38,167 bases of DNA, taken from contig JAEOTM010000037.1 of the NCBI GenBank assembly GCA_016839815.1, forward strand, positions 1 to 38,167. Reading direction: 5' to 3'. This document shows, in pieces, positions 2,171 through 38,167 of the stretch. The DNA is from Candidatus Hodarchaeota archaeon. Lineage in GTDB: Archaea; Asgardarchaeota; Heimdallarchaeia; Hodarchaeales; Hodarchaeaceae. The notes beneath the pieces are model-generated. The model had not been told where the DNA came from and searched no databases. It saw nothing but the letters and a program-made list of their open reading frames with translations. The position numbers and the translations under genes were made by a program. Each line of letters opens with the position of its first letter. Within the stretch, counting starts at the first letter, position 1.

Positions 2171-3088
2171 ATGAAATTGCACAAAATGAAACAGGTCGAT
2201 ATTACCGCAAATATGACTGTTACGGAACTATTAGATTCGATGAAAAATGGAGGATTCACTTGTCGAAAAGTTGCCCTCGCTACTGATCTTTTTTTGGACA
2301 TGATTAGAGATGAATCATGTACCACATTTTTAGGTTTAGCAGGTGCTCTTATACCAGGTGGAATGCGAAAAGTACTTTATAAAATAATCGAAAAGGAAAT
2401 GGTTGATTGTATTATAACTACAGGTGCAAATTTGAGTCATGATCTGTTGGAAACCTCAGGAGGATCTCATTTTCATGGAAATATTGAATTAGATGATGCA
2501 AAAATTAAAGAACTTGATGTTAGTAAAATTTTTGATACATTTGTCTCATATGAATCCTTCGTAAAATTCGAAAACCTTGTTCAGAAAATACTCGATAATA
2601 TCCCAAATGAACCAATGAGTACCCGTCAGTTTATTTATGAGATTGGACGGTATGTAACTGACCCAAATTCCATAGTTAAATTAGCTCATGACAAAAAAAT
2701 CCCTATTTTTGCCCCATCATTTGCTGATAGTATGCTGGGTGTACAATCGTGGCTTTTTTCACAAATGAAGCCATTAAAAATTGATGTGTTAAAAGATCAT
2801 ACTGAATTTTCAAAGATAATATACGAATCAAAGAAAATGGGGGCAATGATCCTTGGAGGGGGAGTTCCAAAACATTTCATCATGAACGGATCACAATTAC
2901 ATGATGGATTAAGTTATGCAGTTCAAATTACAATGGATCGTCCGGAACATGGAGGAGTTAGTGGTGCATCGATTAAGGAGGCAGTTTCATGGGGAAAAGT
3001 AGCATCCGATGCAAAATGGATAGACATAATGGGGGATGTAACATTAGTTCTCCCACTCATAATTACGGGAGTCCTTTCGAGACTATAA
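2171..3088 (+). CDS. dys: Deoxyhypusine synthase
   Basis: Motifs TTGANLSHD, GGGVPKH and GGVSGA..EAVSWGK (active-site Lys). Confidence 0.93.
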   Translation: MKLHKMKQVDITANMTVTELLDSMKNGGFTCRKVALATDLFLDMIRDESCTTFLGLAGALIPGGMRKVLYKIIEKEMVDCIITTGANLSHDLLETSGGSHFHGNIELDDAKIKELDVSKIFDTFVSYESFVKFENLVQKILDNIPNEPMSTRQFIYEIGRYVTDPNSIVKLAHDKKIPIFAPSFADSMLGVQSWLFSQMKPLKIDVLKDHTEFSKIIYESKKMGAMILGGGVPKHFIMNGSQLHDGLSYAVQITMDRPEHGGVSGASIKEAVSWGKVASDAKWIDIMGDVTLVLPLIITGVLSRL

Positions 3089-26954: not shown

Positions 26955-28511
26955 GTGGTGGATAAAGTTAAAATAGTGAAGATTTTTCTCCAATATAATT
27001 ATAATGTTAGTGAGGAAACTTTAGAATTCATCCAAAAGAAGAATGTCTCAGAAAGAGAATTAAAAGAGTTTTTGATAACACAACCTCAGTTAGAACCAGT
27101 GATTTCAGTAAACCTTTTGAGAAGATATCTAGAAAACTTAAGAACCGAACCTAAACATATATCTCTGTCTGAAGATTCTGAAGAACAAATAAAAACTGAA
27201 ATTAAGACTTTACAGCAAAAAACACAGGAGCGAAAGTACACAAAATTAAGATTCTCAATAGACTTAGATATACCCTACAAGTTATCAGAGGAACCTAAAT
27301 TAACAGTTTTCCGGAATCTATTTCTGGATCGATATCAAACTCTCTCAAAGATTTTACTTCAAAATCTCGAACCAAATACAACAATTTTGACCCATAATCT
27401 TCCACAGGAGGAAGTTCCGATTAGTAGATCTGGAATGCTCGTTGGGATGATTCAAGATACTCAGGTTCTGCATACTAATCGCTTTGTAATACAACTGGAA
27501 GACTTTTTAACTGGCCGTACAACAAAATGTGTAATTGTGAAGGATACTCCGTCTTTTCCGCAATATAGGAGAATTTTGAGAGACTCAGTAATTGGTGTTG
27601 CGGGAGTATTGCCAAAAAATTTCCTCGAGGGAGAGCTAACAGCTTTTTGGGGACAAGATATTTTAAGACCCTCCTTCAAAAATCACAAATTCTCCACGTC
27701 AGAACCCTCAACTAAAGTATTATGTCTCTCTGATATACACTGTGGTTCATCACACTTTTCAAACCGATTATTCTCCCGACTAGTTGCATATCTGAATGAA
27801 GAGGTAAGTATTCCTGATATCCCATTTTCACCAGCGGAGATCTCCTCAATTATAATTGCTGGAGATTTAGTTGAGGGAACAGGTCTGGTAACAAAGGAGG
27901 AGAATGAACTAAAAATTGATTCTTATGAGGGGCAATATAACAAGCTCTCAGAATTATTGAGGAAAATCCCCGATCGAATTACAATATTTACTATTCCAGG
28001 AGAACATGATGCTACCCATTTAGCCATTCCCCAACCCGCAATAGATAAAAAAATGGGAAAATCCATTTATTCCTTTCCGAATATAAAAAACCATGGAAAT
28101 CCCCTTCGTATAACAATTAATGGAATGAGGTTCTTGATTTTCCATGCTCAAAGTTGTAATAATCTTTTTTATGGCCTAATGAAAATTAACCAGACTTCTC
28201 CAATTCAGGGCTTTAAAGAATTGATGGAATATCGTCATTTATCACCAGAATTTGGATCGTTTGCAGCATATGCACCATACTCAAGAGATTATCTAGTAAT
28301 AGATGAAGTTCCAGATATTTTGGTGACAGGCCATTTTCACCAAGCTAGAAAAGGTATCTACAGAGGCGTAAGTATAGCTACATGTGGAACTTTCAAAAAA
28401 ATGACCAAAACTGACAAGAAAACAGAGAGAGAAGTATCAGTTGGAGTTTTTCCAATCGTAGACACAAAAACAGCAGAAATAACGATGTTAGATTTAAATA
28501 AAATACCTTAA
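26955..28511 (+). CDS. polB: DNA polymerase D small subunit DP1 (phosphoesterase/3'-5' exonuclease fold)
   Basis: Motifs F.DRY, OB fold, SDIH, AGDLVEG, PGEHD, HLSP and DYLVIDEVPDILVTGHFH; adjacent to cdc6. Confidence 0.85.
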   Translation: MVDKVKIVKIFLQYNYNVSEETLEFIQKKNVSERELKEFLITQPQLEPVISVNLLRRYLENLRTEPKHISLSEDSEEQIKTEIKTLQQKTQERKYTKLRFSIDLDIPYKLSEEPKLTVFRNLFLDRYQTLSKILLQNLEPNTTILTHNLPQEEVPISRSGMLVGMIQDTQVLHTNRFVIQLEDFLTGRTTKCVIVKDTPSFPQYRRILRDSVIGVAGVLPKNFLEGELTAFWGQDILRPSFKNHKFSTSEPSTKVLCLSDIHCGSSHFSNRLFSRLVAYLNEEVSIPDIPFSPAEISSIIIAGDLVEGTGLVTKEENELKIDSYEGQYNKLSELLRKIPDRITIFTIPGEHDATHLAIPQPAIDKKMGKSIYSFPNIKNHGNPLRITINGMRFLIFHAQSCNNLFYGLMKINQTSPIQGFKELMEYRHLSPEFGSFAAYAPYSRDYLVIDEVPDILVTGHFHQARKGIYRGVSIATCGTFKKMTKTDKKTEREVSVGVFPIVDTKTAEITMLDLNKIP

Positions 28512-29749
28512 AGAAGTCTGAAATCAAATTGCTTATCTTTCTGTAATGTAGATTCAACTAAAGAACGAGGGATACTAAAATGAATTTCTTTTGTTCTTCC
28601 ATGACGTCCTCGAGAAACTACACGAGCAGTTATAATACCTAAAGCATCGAGTTCGTTAATTAGATCACCTACACGTCGTTGAGTAAGTGAATCCATACCT
28701 GACTCACGACATAGTTGAACATACTTTTCATAGACATCTCCTGTAGAGACAGCGTCAGGATCACTTGTAACGTTTTCAAGTTGATAAATGGAAGAAATGA
28801 CAATTTTGGATTGAATTGGAAGAGTACTAATCACTTCAGTGATTGTATTACGCTCAATGGCTCCTTGGGCTTTTTTAACATGAGATTGTGTTATGACTTC
28901 CGCGTGTTCTCGTTCAGCAATCTCTGCAGACACTCGGAGGAGATCCATAGCACGACGGGCATCACCATGTTCTTGGGCAGCTATCGCAGCTATCATATTA
29001 ATAACACCTTTATCTAGAGTGTTAGGGCGAAAAGCGATTTCTGATCTCTCTACAAGTATATCCGTGATTTCTGGAGCTTCATAAGGTTTGAAAACGAGTT
29101 CTTCTTCTGATAGGGAGGAAAGAACACGAGGATCTAAGTAATCTTTAAACTTCAAATCATTAGATATTCCAATAATGCTAACTTTCGCACTAGAAAGATC
29201 AGAATTAATTCGGGTGAGACTATAAAGCGTTTCATTCCCCGATTTTTTGATTAGGCTGTCGATTTCGTCTAATACGACGATAAACAACGATTCACGTTGA
29301 TCTAGTCCTTGCTTAAATCGGGTAAAGACTTCATCAGTAGCTAGACCAGTAAAGGGAACTTCGATACCCAAGGTACTACACAGATCTGCAAAGACTCGAT
29401 AGTTTGTATCCACATTATTACAGTTTAAATAAGCTACTTCAATGCGTAAGCCATGATCAGGAGCTTTTTCTTTCAACATACTTAAAACATACTTAGAAAC
29501 AGCGGTTTTCCCCGTACCTGTTTTACCGAAGCATAAGATATTACTAGGTTTCGCTCCTCGCAAAACAGAGGCTAAGATATAACCCAATTGTTTAATTTGC
29601 TCCGTTCGGTGTGGAAGATTCTTAGGTACAAAGGAACTATCTAAAACATCGCGCCTTTGAAATAGTTTAGGTGATTTCAGATACCCCTCAAAGATCTCAT
29701 CTAATGTTAAATCTGATTCGTCATTTTGTTTCATTGGTAATGCACCCAC
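28508..29749 (-). CDS. cdc6: Orc1/Cdc6 replication initiator
   Basis: LPHR, Walker A GKTGTGKT, Walker B VVLDEID, HGDAR, and a winged helix with RGRHGRTK. Confidence 0.97.
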   Translation of the reverse strand: MGALPMKQNDESDLTLDEIFEGYLKSPKLFQRRDVLDSSFVPKNLPHRTEQIKQLGYILASVLRGAKPSNILCFGKTGTGKTAVSKYVLSMLKEKAPDHGLRIEVAYLNCNNVDTNYRVFADLCSTLGIEVPFTGLATDEVFTRFKQGLDQRESLFIVVLDEIDSLIKKSGNETLYSLTRINSDLSSAKVSIIGISNDLKFKDYLDPRVLSSLSEEELVFKPYEAPEITDILVERSEIAFRPNTLDKGVINMIAAIAAQEHGDARRAMDLLRVSAEIAEREHAEVITQSHVKKAQGAIERNTITEVISTLPIQSKIVISSIYQLENVTSDPDAVSTGDVYEKYVQLCRESGMDSLTQRRVGDLINELDALGIITARVVSRGRHGRTKEIHFSIPRSLVESTLQKDKQFDFRLL

Positions 29750-29897
29750 CGAAATCTGCGAAAATCTACACTTCCAATAGCATTACCAGTATTTCCTATC
29801 GAAGAATTTAAATTGAATGCTAGTTCAGTGAAAATGAGAAAGGATGAAATACTGTTTTCCTTTACCTAAAAACCTTTACATCTAATGTTAATGGTCT

Positions 29898-30221
29898 CTA
29901 CTCATCTGGTAGGGATAAAAGAGATGCAGTTCTCGAAACAGTGATCTGTGCGTCTCGTTTTCGCTGAATATCCTCCAATTTATCTAATAAGGAGGATTTG
30001 TTAAAATGTTGTTTGAAGCGGGAGTCAATGGAACCTAGCTTCTGCCAGGCTAGTTCAGGACTACGACCAAGATATTTCCATGAATACTTACCAGCACGTT
30101 TATCATCTAAACGAGCAGAGTGGTAAGTGACAAGCCACAAGTAGGGGCCGTGATAAACACCTTCATTACAGCGACAACCAGTTTTTCCGCACTTCTGCCA
30201 TTTTGCAAGAACAGAGACCAT
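29898..30221 (-). CDS. Small Cys/His Zn-finger protein (DUF6788-like)
   Basis: KCGKTGCRCNEGVYHGPYLW...WKYLG. Confidence 0.6.
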   Translation of the reverse strand: MVSVLAKWQKCGKTGCRCNEGVYHGPYLWLVTYHSARLDDKRAGKYSWKYLGRSPELAWQKLGSIDSRFKQHFNKSSLLDKLEDIQRKRDAQITVSRTASLLSLPDE

Positions 30222-30296
30222 AGTGGGTAGGGGATCTCTATGAAAATTTATAGCTTTCTTACCATATCACTAGTAAGGAAAAACACCACTAAATCC

Positions 30297-31478
30297 TTAA
30301 TCGTAAGCTTGATGCAATACCTCTAGAGCATCTTCATAATCTACTTCTTCAGGATTAAACGCAATAGCACCATCATTAATCGCATCCTGAGCAATAGTCT
30401 CAAACTTGCTGGAAGAAACCTTAGCTTCCTTCAATGTTTGTGGAAGAGAAACTAAGTTATTGAGAGATTCCTGTAAAGATTTAATGAATTCAATAGTAGC
30501 TGTGGGTAGATCAGCTTTAGGAATAGAAGAATAATGCTTAGGACCAGCAAGAGGGAGGAGAAGATTCCCAATAATATCACTTACTTTCTCAAGATTGTAT
30601 TTTAATCCATGAGGAAGAAAAATATTCATTGCTACACCATGTGGAACACCACAAACTCCACCAGTTGCATGACCTAAAGCATGTACCATTCCTGCAAGAG
30701 AATTTGATAACCCCACACCTGCAAGGAAGGCAGCAGTTGATAACGCAAAACGTCCCTTTGAATCCTTAGGTTTCTTTATGATTTGAAGTAAATGTTTACT
30801 TAAGATTTGAATTGCAGAAAAAGCAAAAGCACTTGAAATAGGATTTTTTTGCAGACAATATGATGATTCAATGGCGTGTGTTAAGGCATCCATTCCAGTA
30901 GCGGCAGTCATGAACGGCGGAAGTGTCAAAGTCATTCGAGGATCTAAAATAGCAACATCGGGGATTAAATGCTGACTTGAAAAACCCATTTTTATATTGC
31001 GATTTGAATCTCTGATAACCGCAACCCCAGTCGCCTCAGAACCCGTTCCACTTGTTGTAGGAACAACAATTAATGGTTTTAGGGGTGTTTTAATTATATC
31101 ACCTCCAACAAAATCAAAAATCGTTTCAGAGTTGTGTGTAACTAATATATTAACAGCTTTTGCAGTATCAATCACAGATCCTCCTCCCAAAGCGATTAAG
31201 GAATCACTTTTTGTTTCCCGATAAATTTCAGCCAATTCATTAACAACAATATCAGATGAATCTTGAGGTACATTATCGAAAAGTGAGAAAGCAATATCTG
31301 TCTCACCAAAGGCACTTTTAATATGTTTAATTAAACCTACTCTTTGAATCCCTTTGTCAGTAATAACGAACGGCTTTTTGGCTTGTAAATGCATCAATTC
31401 ATAAGGAATATTTTCTAAAGCATTAGTTCCAGCAAGGATCTTCACAGGATTATAAAATTCAAAATAGGAGGGGATCAT
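30297..31478 (-). CDS. Iron-containing alcohol dehydrogenase
   Basis: Motifs GGGSVID, PTTSGTGSE, DALTHAIE, HALGH and PHG. Confidence 0.93.
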   Translation of the reverse strand: MIPSYFEFYNPVKILAGTNALENIPYELMHLQAKKPFVITDKGIQRVGLIKHIKSAFGETDIAFSLFDNVPQDSSDIVVNELAEIYRETKSDSLIALGGGSVIDTAKAVNILVTHNSETIFDFVGGDIIKTPLKPLIVVPTTSGTGSEATGVAVIRDSNRNIKMGFSSQHLIPDVAILDPRMTLTLPPFMTAATGMDALTHAIESSYCLQKNPISSAFAFSAIQILSKHLLQIIKKPKDSKGRFALSTAAFLAGVGLSNSLAGMVHALGHATGGVCGVPHGVAMNIFLPHGLKYNLEKVSDIIGNLLLPLAGPKHYSSIPKADLPTATIEFIKSLQESLNNLVSLPQTLKEAKVSSSKFETIAQDAINDGAIAFNPEEVDYEDALEVLHQAYD

Positions 31479-31495
31479 TCATATCATCTCATCAT

Positions 31496-32038
31496 TCACA
31501 AACCAAAAGGAATTCCTAAAAGGATAATTCGGAGTCTTCCAATGTATCTTTTATAGAAGGAAATTTTAGGTAATCGCTTAACAACTCGTTTTGCTAGGAT
31601 ACGAGGATATAAATATACTTGAATGCGATTTAAAATACGAATTAAGGACAAAGCAATTGTTATATCACCTTTAAGAAACGCTCCGTGTTCTAAAAAGGCC
31701 TGAACGGCCCCTTTTTGGGATGTCATTAACAAAAACGCATATTCTATATTTTTAATATATATCGTCATATCAGGGACGTTTTCAGTATTTCTGCATCGTA
31801 TTAGGGTATTATTCTGTTTACACAAAATCAATGCTGGACCAGTGGGAAATATTTCATAAACAAGTGTGAAAGTCTCTGGCCAGTTGTGGAGTTCTTGTTG
31901 AATTATTTTATCAAATCGGGAGGCTGATTGAATAGATCGCCCAAGTATAAATAAAACAAATGTGACTATTCCTCGTTTCAGACGTTTCTGACTAGGAGAA
32001 ATTAGTTTGTACGTGGCAGCACTCATAATACCAGCCAA
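31496..32038 (-). CDS. Hypothetical protein, possibly SCP2-like lipid-binding fold
   Basis: Operonic with Fe-ADH. D.TIYIKN...AF.....LKGDI.IA resembles an SCP2 C-terminus. Confidence 0.5.
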   Translation of the reverse strand: MAGIMSAATYKLISPSQKRLKRGIVTFVLFILGRSIQSASRFDKIIQQELHNWPETFTLVYEIFPTGPALILCKQNNTLIRCRNTENVPDMTIYIKNIEYAFLLMTSQKGAVQAFLEHGAFLKGDITIALSLIRILNRIQVYLYPRILAKRVVKRLPKISFYKRYIGRLRIILLGIPFGL

Positions 32039-32041
32039 GGA

Positions 32042-32476
32042 TTACCCCTTGATCCATAGTTCTTGACGAGATATACCATTAGTAGCTATAATTGGAAGCA
32101 GGATTAGAACACCAGTAAGAGTATCAGTAAAAGCAATCAGAATATAGGCTGCTTCTATACCCTCAGTTAGCCAAAGAAGAAGAACTATTAAAGCAAAAGC
32201 GAGACGAACCATGGAAGAGCCAAATCCGATAAATAAATAGTTCGTAACATCATGAAAACATGCATACAAAAGATAATATCCTACGACAAGAAGAAACAAC
32301 CCACTACTATAGACAAACACCATAGTATTAGGTTTATTGATCTGAAAAATAGAAATCAATAAGTCTGGAACAATTATTACTCCTAACCCAAGAATAATAT
32401 CATAAATTCCTCCAATAAAATAGCCTATTCGTATGAATTTAGGATCAGTGAGTTTTAACACCAAAGTCCACCCCAA
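32042..32476 (-). CDS. Four-helix membrane protein, unknown function
   Basis: Four hydrophobic segments; stop 3 bp before the next start. Confidence 0.65.
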   Translation of the reverse strand: MGWTLVLKLTDPKFIRIGYFIGGIYDIILGLGVIIVPDLLISIFQINKPNTMVFVYSSGLFLLVVGYYLLYACFHDVTNYLFIGFGSSMVRLAFALIVLLLWLTEGIEAAYILIAFTDTLTGVLILLPIIATNGISRQELWIKG

Positions 32477-32554
32477 AAAAAAGAGAAATCAGTGCTTTTA
32501 AATTTTATTAGGAAAGGAGAACGAGAGGTATTAAGGCTACGAAAAGTGAATCAT

Positions 32555-32854
32555 TCAGTTTAAGGCTTTATAAAAAACCTTTGGCCGCCCTCTATGACGA
32601 CGATCTTCAGAATAACTAGCCACATATCCTTTAAGAATCAAACGAAGAAGACTGTCATAGAGAGTAGAACGAGCAATCCCTGTCAACGAAACAAGCTTCC
32701 CTCTAGTCAGAGGTCCTTGCTGTTCAAGAATGTCTAACACCTGACGATCCAAATCATGGACAATTGAAGGTTTATTATGTGATAGACTATGCCGACGATC
32801 AGATGATCCAACCTTGGGTTTACTGATTACGCGAAGTAACTGATTATTGGACAT
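32555..32854 (-). CDS. Winged helix-turn-helix DNA-binding protein (TrmB/ArsR-like)
   Basis: LTRGKLVSLTGIARSTLYDSLLRL...GRPKVFY. Start refined to ATG 32854; the ORF track gives 32911. Confidence 0.8.
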   Translation of the reverse strand: MSNNQLLRVISKPKVGSSDRRHSLSHNKPSIVHDLDRQVLDILEQQGPLTRGKLVSLTGIARSTLYDSLLRLILKGYVASYSEDRRHRGRPKVFYKALN

Positions 32855-33200
32855 GTGAGACACCGTAGAATACAAGAGGATGTGGAATCTACGACATATA
32901 AAACACCACAATATGTAGATTATACGAAGATATTTTCTGATACGAAGTTGATAATTGTGGGTTTAGCGAAATTTTCTGAGAAGGACTGACTTTTTAACTT
33001 TCAATTGATAAAATCAACAGTCACAATTATTGCAAATTCGATTGATAGGTCAAAAGAGGGGATTAAGGTCAGTTAAACTCCAACCAAGAAGTGATTTGTG
33101 TATCTTTCTAAGATATTGCTTAATTGATCAATTTTATAAGAAGAAATTATTTTAGAAAAGCTCTAGTTCGATTAAGTTAATTTAATTATAACTTAGTAGC

Positions 33201-33872
33201 TTAGAAAAATTCAGATAAAGTTTTCTTAGGTCTTTTCTTTTTTGCTGGTTTTATTGTTTCCGGCCCATTATCTCCTTTACTAGGTAAAGAATCAACAATC
33301 CAACTATTCATTTCACCTTCATAAGGTTTAAGCATTTCTGATAACTCTTCTTGAGTTTTTTCGTGATCAAGCCAATTAGCTACTTGTTTCTTATTGAGAA
33401 TTACTGGCATCCTATGAAAAATCTTCTCAACAACAGGATGAGGTTTTGTTGTCAAAACTGCACATTTATATTTCATTTTACTCTCCTCTTCACTGAAATA
33501 GGAATTATACACCCCAGCGATTCCGAATAGTGGCTCATTTTTTAAAGAGAAATAGTGTGGAATTCTTTCTTTTCCAGAATGTTCCCATTCAAAGAAGCCA
33601 TTTGCTAATATCACACAACGCTTTTCAATAAAGGCTTTCCTAAAAAGTTTTTTTTCATGAACAGTTTCACTTCTGGCTTTATATGATTGAAAGCCCTTTG
33701 TATAACCCCAATACATTCGTACTAGTTTGTAATCTTCTTCATTTACAATTCCAGTTGCTCTATTAGTTGGTTTTAAATTGTAATAAGGATAGATTTCAAT
33801 ATTCTCTGAAGAAACGCCAAAGAATGATCCGATCTCGTCTTTCGAGGAAAAAAAGGCAAATCTAGAAGGCAT
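33201..33872 (-). CDS. SRAP (SOS-response-associated peptidase; HMCES/YedK) family protein, non-canonical
   Basis: Family motifs YNLKPT, WG, ARSET, F..RC.I.ANGFFEW, AGVY and RMPVIL. The N-terminus is MPSRF rather than MCGRF. Confidence 0.9.
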   Translation of the reverse strand: MPSRFAFFSSKDEIGSFFGVSSENIEIYPYYNLKPTNRATGIVNEEDYKLVRMYWGYTKGFQSYKARSETVHEKKLFRKAFIEKRCVILANGFFEWEHSGKERIPHYFSLKNEPLFGIAGVYNSYFSEEESKMKYKCAVLTTKPHPVVEKIFHRMPVILNKKQVANWLDHEKTQEELSEMLKPYEGEMNSWIVDSLPSKGDNGPETIKPAKKKRPKKTLSEFF

Positions 33873-34039
33873 ACGATTAGATTTGGTACCAGTTTTAAAA
33901 AAATGTTCTACGAAACCTAAAATGGTAAAAAAATCTTAAAACTGAACATTTTTCAAAGGATAAAAGCAAATCCATCAAAGATCCTCATATTAGGACAACT
34001 AGATAGCGACTCTTGTCCTGAAAGAATGAAGGACAAATC

Positions 34040-34522
34040 TTACATTATAATTTTAGGTAGATGATTAACCTTTTTACTATTAATGCGATATTCGAGAGGT
34101 GTGACGCCCTCTTGACGTTCTACAAAGCCTGATTCTACCAAGCGATTTAAATTTGTCTGGATTGTAGAAATACCAATATCTTCCTTCAAATAATGAGTGT
34201 AAAGTTCCTGGATTTCACGGGCTGTCAAGAAATTTGGATTAGCTCGATTATAGACAATAGATAAGATCCGTTCTTTCTTGGTCTCTAGATCCGATAATGA
34301 AACTACTTCAGGTAGAGTTGGAGATTCAAAGATAGATTCAGTTTGAGGCTCATTTTGAAGGAGTAAAGATTCGAGAAGATCATCTATTTGCTTCTGTTGG
34401 TTTCGAGATAATTCTAAGTATCCTTCAACCAATGTATGAAGCGGTCCAAGACGTATCTTGCGATCAAACGCGATAGTTATCTTATCATTGTTTGCAGTTA
34501 TTTTAGAACCTGTTTCACGCAT
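34040..34522 (-). CDS. Protein with C-terminal winged-helix domain
   Basis: KERILSIV...LTAREIQELY...ISTIQTNLNRLVESGFVER...EYRI. Confidence 0.7.
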   Translation of the reverse strand: MRETGSKITANNDKITIAFDRKIRLGPLHTLVEGYLELSRNQQKQIDDLLESLLLQNEPQTESIFESPTLPEVVSLSDLETKKERILSIVYNRANPNFLTAREIQELYTHYLKEDIGISTIQTNLNRLVESGFVERQEGVTPLEYRINSKKVNHLPKIIM

Positions 34523-35355
34523 AATTTCTACACGTCACTTGATAAAAGATTGAATAGTAATTAGTAGATAAGTTCATTTGAACTAATCTTTCACAACTAG
34601 TCATAAGATATTCACTCTAATAAAGATTAATTAATATCTCTATAATACAAAACACGGGTTCTACCGACAAAAACCTTAATGGAATATTCACATGTGAAAA
34701 ACCATTCACTTGTGAAGCTTATTTTACATAAATCATAGTGAAATGAAAAATATCGGAGGAATTAGGAATTAATGAGTTAAAAATCCTTTGATTAGTAAAA
34801 TGAGACAAAAAAAGTCATTAATTTTGTAATCAACTGAAATCTCCTATTTTTTCATACGTTATGAAATAACGAGTTGTGAAAAGGAATAATACTCCTCATA
34901 AGAAAAGACTGTAAAGTTGCAGTGGAAACAAGGGGGGTGAAAATGTACAATGTGAAAACAGAAAAAAAGATGGTTAAAGGAAAGTAACTTGGTTAATTGA
35001 GGAAATATAAAAATCTTTGTCTTTAAATTTATAGTAAAAAGAAATCCTCTTGTAAAATCTAATATTAAAGCAAAAACGCCTTTTTTGACCTCAATTTCCA
35101 GTGAAAGAAAAACATGGAAAATGACCTAGATTTGTGAAACATACACTTACATGGAAAAAATATTACCAAAAAAATGTGAAACGAATTTCTCTAAGAATCT
35201 CTTATCCTTGCTCATGTCCAAAGGATGAAATTCTTTCTCTCAACACAAGGAATTCCAAGAATACCTTGCATAATATTGAGCTCATACTGAAAATCTTAAA
35301 AAACCTGAACACCTAAATTACATAAATCAGTTTCATAAAGAGCTGACATCAAGAA
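34523..35355. other. Putative chromosomal replication origin (oriC)
   Basis: Longest intergenic region in the window, AT-rich, with a near-canonical ORB, many TGTGAA/TGGAAA/AGTGAAA half-sites, a gene-orientation switch, and cdc6 about 5 kb away. Confidence 0.7.
34916..34938 (+). promoter_or_regulatory. Origin recognition box (ORB) with G-string
   Basis: GTTGCAGTGGAAACAAGGGGGGT versus the archaeal ORB consensus of roughly GTTCCAGTGGAAAC-AAAGGGG. Confidence 0.78.
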
Positions 35356-35655
35356 ATGACCCGTTATATGGATGAAACGCTAGTAGTCGAACCAGAAGAG
35401 GAACAACCAATTGAAAGTCATCCTCAAGAATCTATCTCTAGTTTTACAAATCAAACCGACTTAAAAGTGTTTAATGCATTAAAAGAACACCAACCAGCCA
35501 CACGGATGGATCTGTGTGATAAAACGGGAATAGCACGGACTACAATCTATGATGCACTAACACGACTCATGGTTTTGAAAGTCGTTACAAAATATTCACC
35601 CCCAGTCTCCAAGAAAGGTCGTCCTAAAGTCTTTTACCGAACTATTTCGGAATAA
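35356..35655 (+). CDS. Winged helix-turn-helix DNA-binding protein, paralogue of 32555-32854
   Basis: ATRMDLCDKTGIARTTIYDALTRL...GRPKVFY. Confidence 0.8.
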   Translation: MTRYMDETLVVEPEEEQPIESHPQESISSFTNQTDLKVFNALKEHQPATRMDLCDKTGIARTTIYDALTRLMVLKVVTKYSPPVSKKGRPKVFYRTISE

Positions 35656-35837
35656 CCTCTTTTCTTACAAATTATTTCGACCATACAATAAGTAGCATCT
35701 CTTTACGAGAGATTTTGCTTGTGTGTGGATAAGGATTCATCTTTTCACTATATAGTGCACAAGGGAAATTGTACGAAGATTTAATAAAGAATACAAGCTA
35801 TTAGTATTCAATTTTTATGAATTAATAATGTTGGTAG

Positions 35838-37541
35838 ATGAAGATGAAGAAGAAGAAGTATAAAAAATCATCATTGAGTTGGGGAGTAGTAGGGATCACC
35901 CTCATATTCGTTTCATGCTTAACAAACCCTGCATCAGGAAAGGAAGGACTAGTGAGAAGTATTACTGTAGAAAGTAATACTCAACATGATTTTGAAAGTG
36001 TCGCGGGTTCACGATTACTGGGAGACGTTTCTCAAAGTGTTATCATAGGACATCCCCATCCAGATCGAGAGATACGAATAATCTTTGGTTCATATAGTAC
36101 ATCTAATAGCGATCTCACCGTATTGAAACATTGGGGTGATCGCTTCAATTTCGTATTAGAAGGAACATATACCTATGCTGTTCAAGGACTCACTCCTTTG
36201 CTCTGTTATGATTTCGATGGTGATAGAGAGGAAGAAATTTTGGTCAGTACAGGCGTTCCCAGTCAGATGTTATTTCTAAGATGGAATGGAACAGGTTACT
36301 ATCCGATTTGGCAGAATATTAGTTCACAAATTCCTTATCAGCATCAGGCACAAGCACAAGACATTGATAACGACGGGTTACCAGAATTAATCACATGTAA
36401 TTGGGCTGGGACAAATATCTATTCATGGGACGCCAATTTTACTAATTTCAGATTGGTTTATACAATTCCACATGGAGGGGGCCTTTATGCCCATGTAACC
36501 CAAATTGGTATTGGTGATATTGACAATGATAATGATCAGGAAATCATTTTAAGTGCTTATTCCGATCTAGATAATAAGTCAATACGTTTTTGGGGATTTG
36601 ACGGAAGTAATTACACGGAAGAATTCTCAGCTTATTATCCTGACTATTCATATGGATTTAGTACAACTACCGTTGTAGATATAGATTCAGACGGTCAAAT
36701 GGAAGCAATAGCAGGGACTCTACCTGAGTATGGAAATTTTGACACCGAGAGTTTTCCTATTGTACTACTGAAATGGAATGGTTCATATCTAGAACCAACA
36801 ACGATCTTTATGGATATTAATCCCCATTTACAACTTAGAGCAGCAGATATCGATGAAGATGGAGACCCAGAGGTACTAGTTGACCAGAATGGAGGATGGG
36901 CGTCACTTGTAGAAGTAGATAAAACAGGAGAAGTGATTGGAATGCAAACGAATTTTTTCTGTGTAGGAACTATAGAATTTTATGACTTTGATCTTGACGG
37001 AGTTTTAGAAATATTATCTCCAGCCCATGTGAGCGGATCAGATTATAATTTAGTTCTTCGAGACCGATATGCATTCATCATCCACGATACTCGTATTCCA
37101 TATGTCGAAAAAATAGTTTATCATCCAGCAGATCCTAAATTAGGAGACAGTGTAATAATGGAAGCCACAATCACAGATGAATCAGGAGTAGCAGAAGCAA
37201 ACATTACTTATCGTCTGAACGGAGGACTATGGATAACAGAACCATTGCTGCATTCTTATCTCGATGTGTACGTACATCATTTTGGAGTATTCACTAAACC
37301 AACACTGATAGAATACTACATTACTGCTGTGGATATTTCTCCCAACCAGAATACACGGATAGATGATAATAATGGACAATATTATCGCATAACACTAGAG
37401 GGAGATGAGACATCTACTACTACAGATATAACCACAACTACAGGTCAAAAAATTACCCCCTCAGTAGAGATTTCATTCCTAATAACAAGCCTGATTATTC
37501 TAATTATCGGTAGAAGAAAAAAACCAAGAGATAGACACTAA
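35838..37541 (+). CDS. Secreted, membrane-anchored FG-GAP/VCBS-repeat beta-propeller protein with Ig-like domain
   Basis: Signal peptide; six D[FI]DxDxxxE repeats; Ig-like segment; Thr-rich linker, TM helix and basic tail. Confidence 0.8.
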   Translation: MKMKKKKYKKSSLSWGVVGITLIFVSCLTNPASGKEGLVRSITVESNTQHDFESVAGSRLLGDVSQSVIIGHPHPDREIRIIFGSYSTSNSDLTVLKHWGDRFNFVLEGTYTYAVQGLTPLLCYDFDGDREEEILVSTGVPSQMLFLRWNGTGYYPIWQNISSQIPYQHQAQAQDIDNDGLPELITCNWAGTNIYSWDANFTNFRLVYTIPHGGGLYAHVTQIGIGDIDNDNDQEIILSAYSDLDNKSIRFWGFDGSNYTEEFSAYYPDYSYGFSTTTVVDIDSDGQMEAIAGTLPEYGNFDTESFPIVLLKWNGSYLEPTTIFMDINPHLQLRAADIDEDGDPEVLVDQNGGWASLVEVDKTGEVIGMQTNFFCVGTIEFYDFDLDGVLEILSPAHVSGSDYNLVLRDRYAFIIHDTRIPYVEKIVYHPADPKLGDSVIMEATITDESGVAEANITYRLNGGLWITEPLLHSYLDVYVHHFGVFTKPTLIEYYITAVDISPNQNTRIDDNNGQYYRITLEGDETSTTTDITTTTGQKITPSVEISFLITSLIILIIGRRKKPRDRH

Positions 37542-38167
37542 ACTCTTTTTACAACAGTATAGATGAAATGATCCTTCTGGATAAGAGTATCAATTTTCCA
37601 AGAGTCTGAACTGGCAATAAGTGCAGAAAACTCATCTCTGGTGGGCATATAAAACGGCATCCAGGGTGTTCGAGATTTACGATAGAGTATTCTGATTTGA
37701 GCCTGACCAACAGGTAAACCTTTATTCCGATTCTGAGTATGATATTCACGATGGATAGGATCTAACGATTGATCATCAGGAGAGGGATCTCTGAAATGTG
37801 CAATAAGACAAGCATTTGGGGTAGCAATGGAAGCAAGATAAGTTAAAACCTTTTTTGCAGTTTGAGGATCACCACATAGAGAAAAATTATTGCCCATAAA
37901 TAAAAAGGTTCCAAACGTTCGATTAAAAGGTGGAAAATCTTTAATATTATAACAAACAGTATTAATAATTCCCCTGTGTTTTGCTACATCTAAAGCTCCA
38001 GGAGAAACATCTAGAGCGACAACGTCAAATCCTTTCTTTTGAAAATATAGAGAATGTCGTCCAGCACCACACCCAACATCCAAAATCGGAGAGATAGCAT
38101 GATTCAGAATAGTTTGCTCCTCTGAAGGCCAGTCAACATATGTTGAAAAATATCCAGAAGTATCATC
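37538..38167 (-). CDS. Class I SAM-dependent methyltransferase (5' end beyond the window)
   Basis: ILDVGCGAGRH, ALDVSPGA. The frame stays open from 38083 to the window edge. Confidence 0.85.
   Translation of the reverse strand, partial: DDTSGYFSTYVDWPSEEQTILNHAISPILDVGCGAGRHSLYFQKKGFDVVALDVSPGALDVAKHRGIINTVCYNIKDFPPFNRTFGTFLFMGNNFSLCGDPQTAKKVLTYLASIATPNACLIAHFRDPSPDDQSLDPIHREYHTQNRNKGLPVGQAQIRILYRKSRTPWMPFYMPTRDEFSALIASSDSWKIDTLIQKDHFIYTVVKRV

Follow-up and report, generated by a model that had tools for sequence, protein, structure and literature searches.

Where does chromosomal replication start in the Hodarchaeales, and can an origin lie apart from the gene of its initiator? The question is raised by a 38,167-bp contig (C30, analysed whole and called the window here) of a 4.24-Mb Hodarchaeota assembly in 206 contigs with 36% GC, in which a non-coding spacer between two divergent winged-helix genes carries origin recognition boxes (ORBs) at a distance from the gene of the Orc1/Cdc6 initiator. 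This spacer is very probably an arm of an ORB-type origin locus, with its ORBs in reversed polarity and with an interleaved second motif, TGTGAA, that is tied to a winged-helix gene found throughout the Asgard phylum. It is likely that the spacer belongs to the chromosomal replication-origin locus, because its ORB is genome-unique and fixed in position, because cdc6 and the DNA polymerase D (PolD) small-subunit gene dp1 are syntenic with it, and because ORB-bearing spacers adjoin the same genes in other Asgard families; binding of Cdc6 to the spacer is predicted with the same likelihood. The original prediction, which had proposed an oriC here, thus holds for membership of the origin locus, through the conserved ORB and the cdc6/dp1 synteny; initiation inside 34523-35355 is less likely, its chances being even at best or slightly below. 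The spacer and its two ORBs are as follows.

34523-35355, unstranded: non-coding spacer of 833 nucleotides (nt) between two divergent winged-helix genes
34917-34938, plus strand: ORB1, a canonical ORB with a dyad core followed by a G-string
34923-34928, plus strand: ORB1 core, invariant run
34933-34936, plus strand: ORB1 G-string, invariant run
35087-35106, minus strand: ORB2, an inverted ORB-like box with a core one mismatch from canonical and the G-string remnant AGGT
35096-35099: TTCC of ORB2, invariant run
35101-35106: GTGAAA of ORB2, invariant run

ORB1 has one mismatch to the 12-nt ORB core and a run of six G, and its core holds both the TTCC and the GAA motifs that Matsunaga et al. (PMC1904270) found conserved in Pyrococcus ORBs and mini-ORBs. 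The string that the original prediction had placed at 34916-34938 is there to the letter. A weight matrix built from 12 relatives, with the window left out, was scanned on both strands of the 4.24-Mb genome, and its top match genome-wide is at 34917 (23.3 bits; runner-up, 19.0). Two single-contig relatives (4.94 and 3.16 Mb) each contain a single match to a strict ORB pattern, in both cases at the orthologous site, which lies at ∼2.717 Mb in the larger genome, and a reversed-control pattern has zero matches in either.

Conservation was assessed with a query consisting of the start of a 160-amino acid (aa) gene, the spacer, and the start of a 99-aa gene, which is matched in 14 of 21 other genomes of the genus and over its full length in four. 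Thirteen orthologous same-genus spacers were aligned; one, from the 3.16-Mb single-contig relative (L034, G008:C1, ∼1.6789-1.6791 Mb), is partly N with ORB2 unreadable, so invariance is counted in 12 genomes, and invariant blocks are runs of at least four columns invariant in these 12. Spacer identity to the window drops to 37-46% in the more distant orthologues (∼44% for the sequence outside the conserved elements), and spacer length and element positions are nonetheless held in the 13 genomes despite this sequence drift. The box TTCCAATGGAAAT followed by a G-run stands at offset 411-418 from the 160-aa gene, in one orientation, in 13/13 spacers, and conservation of the ORB in relatives, on which the original prediction had made its own survival depend, is therefore complete in this sample. 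ORB2 reads, on the minus strand from 35106 to 35087, TTTCACnGGAAAT, two bases, and AGGT; its core and the ACCT flank are kept in 11 of the 12 readable orthologues, at an offset of ∼600. The claim that no inverted full ORB is present has to be withdrawn in favor of this inverted box with a weak G-string, which would qualify as an ORB by its similarity to one.

Interleaved with the two ORBs are copies of a second motif, TGTGAA, which are listed here with their invariance in the 12 genomes.

34589-34595, minus strand: inverted TGTGAA box, all seven columns invariant
34738-34742, plus strand: box core GTGAA, invariant
34875-34880, plus strand: TGTGAA box, invariant
34951-34956, plus strand: TGTGAA box, invariant, within the 34946-34957 box of the original prediction
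35175-35180, plus strand: TGTGAA box, invariant, absent from the original prediction

GTGAAA occurs in eight copies on the plus strand of the 833-nt spacer, whereas 2000 dinucleotide shuffles yield 0.79 copies on average and never more than 4, and in an unbiased test on the maximum count of any 6-mer the observed value is reached by only 1.1% of shuffles. When TGTGAA is counted on both strands, the spacer is the densest 700-nt window of the genome (8 copies against a mean of 0.45), and it is also the genome's top 700-nt window for the motif set of the original prediction, the runner-up windows examined being coding. Invariance extends to the TGTGAA core in four forward copies and a single inverted one and to the GTGAAA within ORB2, and boxes and ORBs are kept at fixed offsets across the 13 genomes. 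The conserved forward boxes at 34875, 34951, 35101, and 35175 are separated by steps of 76, 150, and 74 nt, and this spacing is kept genus-wide; a spacing of ∼75/150/75 nt suggests a phased protein-DNA assembly. Five boxes had been described as variant ORB half-sites, and their coordinates and uniform plus orientation are correct, but those at 35111, 35131, and 35147 have zero invariant columns in the genus, and the boxes are copies of a distinct motif linked to a winged-helix gene rather than pieces of an ORB.

The linkage to that gene is seen most clearly outside the genus. Canonical inverted ORB pairs lie 1-2 kb upstream of the cdc6 orthologues in Odin, Hod-like, and LC30 loci. The spacer of the ORB pair contains zero copies of TGTGAA in three Odin and two Hod-like loci, whereas the spacer upstream of a 153-159 aa gene in the same five loci contains 2-6 copies against 0.3-0.4 expected. 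The LC30 locus has eight copies in its ORB-containing spacer, with the clearest run just upstream of a homologous 165-aa gene. A phylum survey of 23 loci from nine other Asgard families finds 97 boxes in the 500 nt upstream of the winged-helix gene, or 8.4/kb against 0.59/kb elsewhere in the loci, an enrichment of 14-fold with 2-8 copies in every locus; the 23 loci are related and non-independent, so that a pooled probability is overstated, and the pattern holds family by family. A solitary ORB(-) is located 245-302 nt upstream of the winged-helix gene in 16/23 loci, and a canonical ORB pair lies within 1.6 kb in most of the 23. ORB1 of the window is the counterpart of this solitary ORB, because it has the same orientation relative to the 160-aa gene and stands ∼400 nt upstream of it. 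The boxes are a motif class of their own, and they track the winged-helix gene rather than the ORBs.

The window member of this gene family directly adjoins the spacer.

34040-34522, minus strand: 160-aa winged-helix gene of a phylum-wide family adjoining cdc6, coding for the candidate box-binding protein

Of 151 sampled Asgard genomes, 115 (41 of 52 genera) have a match to a profile made from the 160-aa family, mostly in single copy, and the gene is the direct neighbor of cdc6 in 22 of the 23 loci of other families. The window protein shares 35-38% identity with the Odin and Hod-like 153-159 aa proteins (E values of 1e-10 to 1e-12), and its direct match to the LC30 165-aa protein is weak. Its C-terminal winged-helix domain is modelled with a predicted local distance difference test score (pLDDT) of 85-96 per 10-residue block, and the phylum-invariant residues fall in the modelled recognition helix and wing. 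The best matches among solved structures are MarR, ZitR, RosR, and Fur-type winged helices (E≥1.8e-3), and the matches listed by the fold search are generic winged-helix regulators, with no replication factor among them. A WhiP-type origin, as in Sulfolobus oriC3, was considered and rejected, the best fold matches being single-domain MarR/Fur/RosR-type winged helices, with no Cdt1-like entry among the matches listed, and the layout differing from IR(+)/ucm/IR(-). From its linkage to the box-bearing spacers, the 160-aa protein is the predicted ligand of the boxes.

Further conserved blocks of the spacer lie near the flanking genes or between the boxes.

34618-34625, minus strand: TATA-like block, invariant in 12 genomes, ∼95 nt upstream of the 160-aa start codon
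34687-34716, unstranded: two dyad boxes (5+2+5 palindromes with the same half-site), the first a perfect 12-nt palindrome
35198-35201: TCTC, invariant run in 12 genomes
35285-35310, plus strand: TATA-like block, the putative promoter of the 99-aa gene, with 14/26 columns invariant and an invariant run at 35288-35300

From its position, the block at 34618-34625 is probably the promoter of the 160-aa gene, and the block at 35285-35310, ∼50 nt upstream of the start codon of the 99-aa gene, appears to serve that gene in the same way. Conservation of the dyad boxes is only partial in distant relatives. A known RNA gene in the spacer was also considered and rejected: an Rfam scan of 34000-36000 gave no family at threshold, only a sub-threshold match to transfer-messenger RNA (tmRNA) inside a coding region.

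The genes of the locus that bear on replication, and an additional ORB-like element, are these.

28508-29749, minus strand: Orc1/Cdc6 initiator gene (Pfam Cdc6_C, Cdc6_lid, and AAA)
26955-28511, plus strand: PolD small-subunit gene dp1 (Pfam DNA_pol_E_B and Metallophos), convergent with cdc6
29776-29803, minus strand: ORB2-type element (core and GGT) at 27-54 nt before the start codon of cdc6
35356-35655, plus strand: 99-aa TrmB-like winged-helix gene (Pfam TrmB), a second conserved origin-linked gene

Pfam agrees with the original prediction of a Cdc6 at 28508-29749, and the strands of the open reading frames (ORFs) agree with its statement that all eight from 28508 to 34522 point leftward and the next two rightward. 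The window Cdc6 shares 96-97% identity with its matches in 'Heimdallarchaeota B3_Heim' and in metagenome genomes of Hodarchaeota, which marks the organism as an Asgard archaeon of the Hodarchaeales group, and it is 52-57% identical to cdc6 matches on Thermococcus, Odin, and other contigs (Thermococcus, 55-56%). A dp1-sized ORF convergent with cdc6 is also present in the Odin, Hod-like, and LC30 loci, as judged by ORF position only. The ORB2-type element before cdc6 has the same sequence in the window and two close relatives and is kept in both single-contig relatives; it is a possible, putative site of Cdc6 auto-regulation. The 99-aa protein is 39-46% identical to 92-96 aa genes that adjoin ORB pairs of Odin and Hod-like loci. 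It has a paralogue in the window, a 118-aa winged-helix protein (32555-32911; 41% identity), and this one matches the origin-linked 92-96 aa genes even better. A third small protein family (∼92-131 aa, no Pfam match) flanks ORB pairs in several Asgard families (L022:7564-7842, L017:7635-8030, and L023:8126-8416; Odin versus Hod-like identity, 49-52%), and it has no homologue in the window genome or near the origin of the closed relatives.

Elsewhere in the genome there are further candidates of other kinds. Four genes carry a Cdc6_C domain, and the copy at 28508-29749 has the top Cdc6_C score; the other three, on contigs C185, C18, and C47, have no canonical ORB alongside any of them. The paralogue at C185:27126-27928 has an 800-nt upstream spacer without a canonical ORB or an obvious repeat, and this spacer could be a candidate origin of a different box type. 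The runner-up ORB matrix match, C196:46481, is within a 590-nt spacer (C196:46261-46852; L085:3262-3853) that includes five box cores. The genes around the C196 spacer code for a TPR protein, for a kinase-like protein, and for unknowns; a replication gene was not seen among them, and the spacer was set aside as an origin.

How far the spacer is from its initiator is a matter of recent history. Seven genes and 4.8 kb separate it from cdc6, and the spacer does not adjoin the initiator gene. The 4.94-Mb relative is organized, by position and ORF size, as ORB, 160-aa gene, two small genes, cdc6, and dp1, with the cdc6 start ∼2 kb from ORB1 and three small ORFs between, and the SRAP and Fe-ADH genes of the window are absent from close relatives. 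From the shorter gene order of the 4.94-Mb relative and the lack of SRAP and Fe-ADH in close relatives, the seven-gene gap reads as a recent insertion into an ancestrally cdc6-adjacent order. The original prediction of an origin seven genes away from its initiator is right as to the gap, and the detachment itself is young.

Two stretches of the spacer are candidates for DNA unwinding.

34939-35086, unstranded: AT-rich tract faced by the G-strings of both ORB1 and ORB2, a candidate unwinding element
34790-34860, unstranded: second low-stability stretch, on the core side of ORB1, with a second minimum of mean stability at ∼34803-34828

Averaged over 12 orthologues, duplex stability reaches its minimum in the AT-rich tract, which is unconserved in sequence (2/125 columns invariant). 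In 4/12 orthologues the least stable 50-mer is located within 34790-34860, and under the canonical polarity rule this stretch is a candidate for an alternative unwinding element.

A mechanism that joins these elements would have Orc1/Cdc6, encoded 4.8 kb away, bind the strong ORB1 (34917-34938) and, more weakly, the inverted ORB2 (35087-35106). The interleaved TGTGAA boxes would form a second class of sites, most likely for the 160-aa winged-helix protein. The box at 34589-34595, at the presumed transcription start of the 160-aa gene, would allow auto-regulation of that gene, and the remaining boxes, whose distances from the ORBs are fixed, would contribute with Cdc6 to a larger assembly of protein and DNA. 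MCM loading and unwinding would then take place either in the AT tract between ORB1 and ORB2 or in the low-stability stretch on the core side of ORB1. Taken further, this arrangement could represent an Asgard two-component origin code, in which Orc1/Cdc6 on ORBs is joined by a cdc6-adjacent 157-160 aa winged-helix protein on TGTGAA arrays acting as an accessory recognition or licensing factor; in the genus of the window, both site classes would be interleaved at fixed spacing. Such a code is doubtful on present evidence, but if true it would be a prokaryotic step toward multi-subunit origin recognition.

A number of observations weigh against an origin arm in which replication actually starts. 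The geometry, which the original prediction had called atypical and which is so, is one: the G-strings of ORB1(+) and ORB2(-) point inward, to the AT tract between the two boxes, which is the reverse of ORB(-)/duplex unwinding element (DUE)/ORB(+), the structural rule given in the Ori-Finder-Arch preprint (bioRxiv 10.64898/2026.08.15.744077). ORB pairs in the Thermococcus, Odin, Hod-like, and LC30 loci are (-) then (+), with cores inward, and no inverted pair of that polarity is found within the spacer; ORB2 furthermore retains only a remnant of its G-string. The tract that had been described as very AT-rich is indeed the AT-richer part of the spacer, but that wording is too strong for a slight excess of 75.6% AT against 71.4% for the spacer as a whole. 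Cumulative skew, proposed as a check on the original prediction and run on closed relatives, lends it no support. The 400 kb around the ORB in one closed relative show a top-strand shift in GC skew of +0.03 (p=0.007 by window shuffling), which holds within genes of either strand and has its cumulative minimum 25 kb from the ORB, but in the second closed relative the shift is +0.011 (p=0.14) and is not reproduced, and forty-two 20-kb samples of the 4.94-Mb genome show no two-arm pattern centered on the ORB (p=0.8). GC skew neither supports nor relocates the origin.

A further point comes from relatives of the same genus (L036:2750-3050, L035 [reverse] 2750-3044, and L028:2950-3240). Distant ones have a canonical ORB(-), ∼230 nt of AT-rich DNA, and an ORB(+) beyond the 99-aa gene, and close ones have an apparently inverted copy of this module with one box degenerate. 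The relatives' canonical module may be the true unwinding site. Neither a fuzzy pattern nor short-word BLAST finds such a module in the window's assembly, which is 89.5% complete, and its absence fits either loss or non-assembly. Its syntenic place in the window is occupied by an FG-GAP gene (35838-37541) and a methyltransferase gene (37538-38167); synteny with relatives ends at 37541, the FG-GAP stop codon, where the methyltransferase gene abuts, and the FG-GAP gene is intact in the window, close relatives retaining only its last ∼140 nt (L006:3019-3159). It is mainly because the relatives' canonical module is missing here that no claim of unwinding within 34523-35355 is made, and initiation in the spacer, rather than only at a canonical pair like that of the relatives, would be an additional step. 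Lastly, the boxes might just as well be bound by Cdc6, or be operators of transcription and nothing more.

Transcriptional control alone is an unlikely explanation of the spacer. The ORBs would be Cdc6 operators and the boxes operators of a repressor-like 160-aa protein, together tuning both divergent genes (160-aa and 99-aa) and the series of co-oriented genes that ends in cdc6, with replication starting at an unassembled canonical pair. The canonical ORB(-)/AT/ORB(+) module beyond the 99-aa gene in relatives supplies just such a pair; one box overlaps the presumed 160-aa transcription start, the 160-aa protein resembles a MarR/Fur-type regulator, an ORB2-type element stands just before the cdc6 start codon in a position typical of auto-regulation, and in other families cdc6 and the 157-aa gene share a promoter region that is formed by the spacer with boxes and ORB. 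There is also a precedent in Orc1 paralogues that regulate transcription and are not initiators (PMC9738581). However, box and ORB spacing is fixed over 600 nt, far past the normal range of operators, and ORB1 is the sole strict ORB in each closed relative genome. A three-ORB layout with one ORB apart from a DUE-flanking pair is known in Sulfolobus oriC1 (PMC12141716), and regulation and origin function can coexist in the same DNA.

The identity of the boxes is the point on which another reading turns, namely that they are true mini-ORBs, weak cooperative Cdc6 sites as in Thermococcales and Methanothermobacter, with the winged-helix gene a bystander. ORB2 looks like a hybrid of an ORB left half and a box, the box looks much like the right-hand part of an ORB core minus one G, and Cdc6-bound mini-ORB arrays in Pyrococcus and cooperative binding in Methanothermobacter are precedents (PMC1904270). 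A mini-ORB is a repeat of the shortened ORB core, though, and the box 6-mer differs from the ORB core in 13/13 genomes, the two staying distinct throughout; the Thermococcus mini-ORBs in the compared loci, in contrast, are copies of the ORB core itself. Three Odin and two Hod-like lineages, moreover, lack the box in their ORB-pair spacers and show its enrichment solely before the 157-aa gene. Mini-ORBs are quite improbable. Least credible of all is a chance or neutral motif cluster, or a mobile element that integrated together with an initiator of its own. Gene content between spacer and cdc6 does differ among relatives, and the genome does have four Cdc6 paralogues, but chance is excluded by the shuffle tests and the genome-wide rank, and the elements are invariant in 12-13 genomes. 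A mobile origin is further at odds with a gene-motif module that adjoins the cdc6 orthologue phylum-wide, together with a convergent dp1-sized ORF where checked, and with a window Cdc6 that is the top Cdc6_C scorer of the four and 52-57% identical to cdc6 matches from Thermococcus and others.

The locus provides a concrete and testable origin architecture for the Hodarchaeales. Heimdall-group Asgard archaea are described as the closest known relatives of eukaryotes. The DNA probes (ORB1, ORB2, and the boxes) and the proteins (Cdc6 and the 160-aa winged-helix protein) are defined. The pairing of boxes with the winged-helix gene extends to nine further families, and if the protein binds origins, it would be a second specificity factor for archaeal initiation. 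Automated finders that require initiator adjacency or canonical ORB polarity may overlook a spacer arm of this kind.

In the papers searched, no experimentally mapped Asgard replication origin was found, and chromosomal origin DNA is undescribed in an Asgard replisome paper, an Asgard review, and a circular-genome paper; work on the Asgard replisome deals with its proteins. One counterpart is computational: the Ori-Finder-Arch preprint (bioRxiv 10.64898/2026.08.15.744077) gives bulk origin predictions that include Promethearchaeota genomes and, like the analysis here, derives Cdc6-linked ORB-type origins from ORBs, an AT-rich element, and initiator genes. Its first rule asks for a spacer next to an initiator gene, and its structural rule for at least three ORBs in an ORB(-)/DUE/ORB(+) arrangement, and the window spacer has neither feature; in text searches of the preprint, neither the second motif nor the winged-helix gene came up.

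Among characterized origins, the oriC of Pyrococcus and Thermococcus (PMC1904270) is similar in its ORB dyad core with TTCC and GAA and a G-rich tail, in its linkage to cdc6 and dp1, and in the small repeats around the long ORBs. That oriC, however, has two long ORBs that face the AT-rich region with cores inward, and it abuts cdc6, whereas the window has a reversed pair, a weak ORB2, and seven genes between. Its small repeats copy the core of the ORB, and dp1 there contains a second ORB cluster, whereas the small repeats of the window are a different motif, and a search of the window's dp1 for an ORB cluster in the Thermococcales style found it absent. Sulfolobus oriC1 (PMC12141716) offers a precedent only, homology being neither found nor claimed. 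It is likewise of the Orc1-1 type, with one ORB apart from a DUE-flanking inverted pair, and it includes a non-ORB element, ucm, that is required for origin activity and bound by a separate protein, UBP (PMC12141716). Sulfolobus oriC1 has one ucm, located inside the DUE, whereas the window has several boxes over 600 nt, and UBP belongs to the general nucleoid proteins and folds into a saddle-like shape, whereas the candidate binder in the window is a winged-helix protein encoded by the locus itself.

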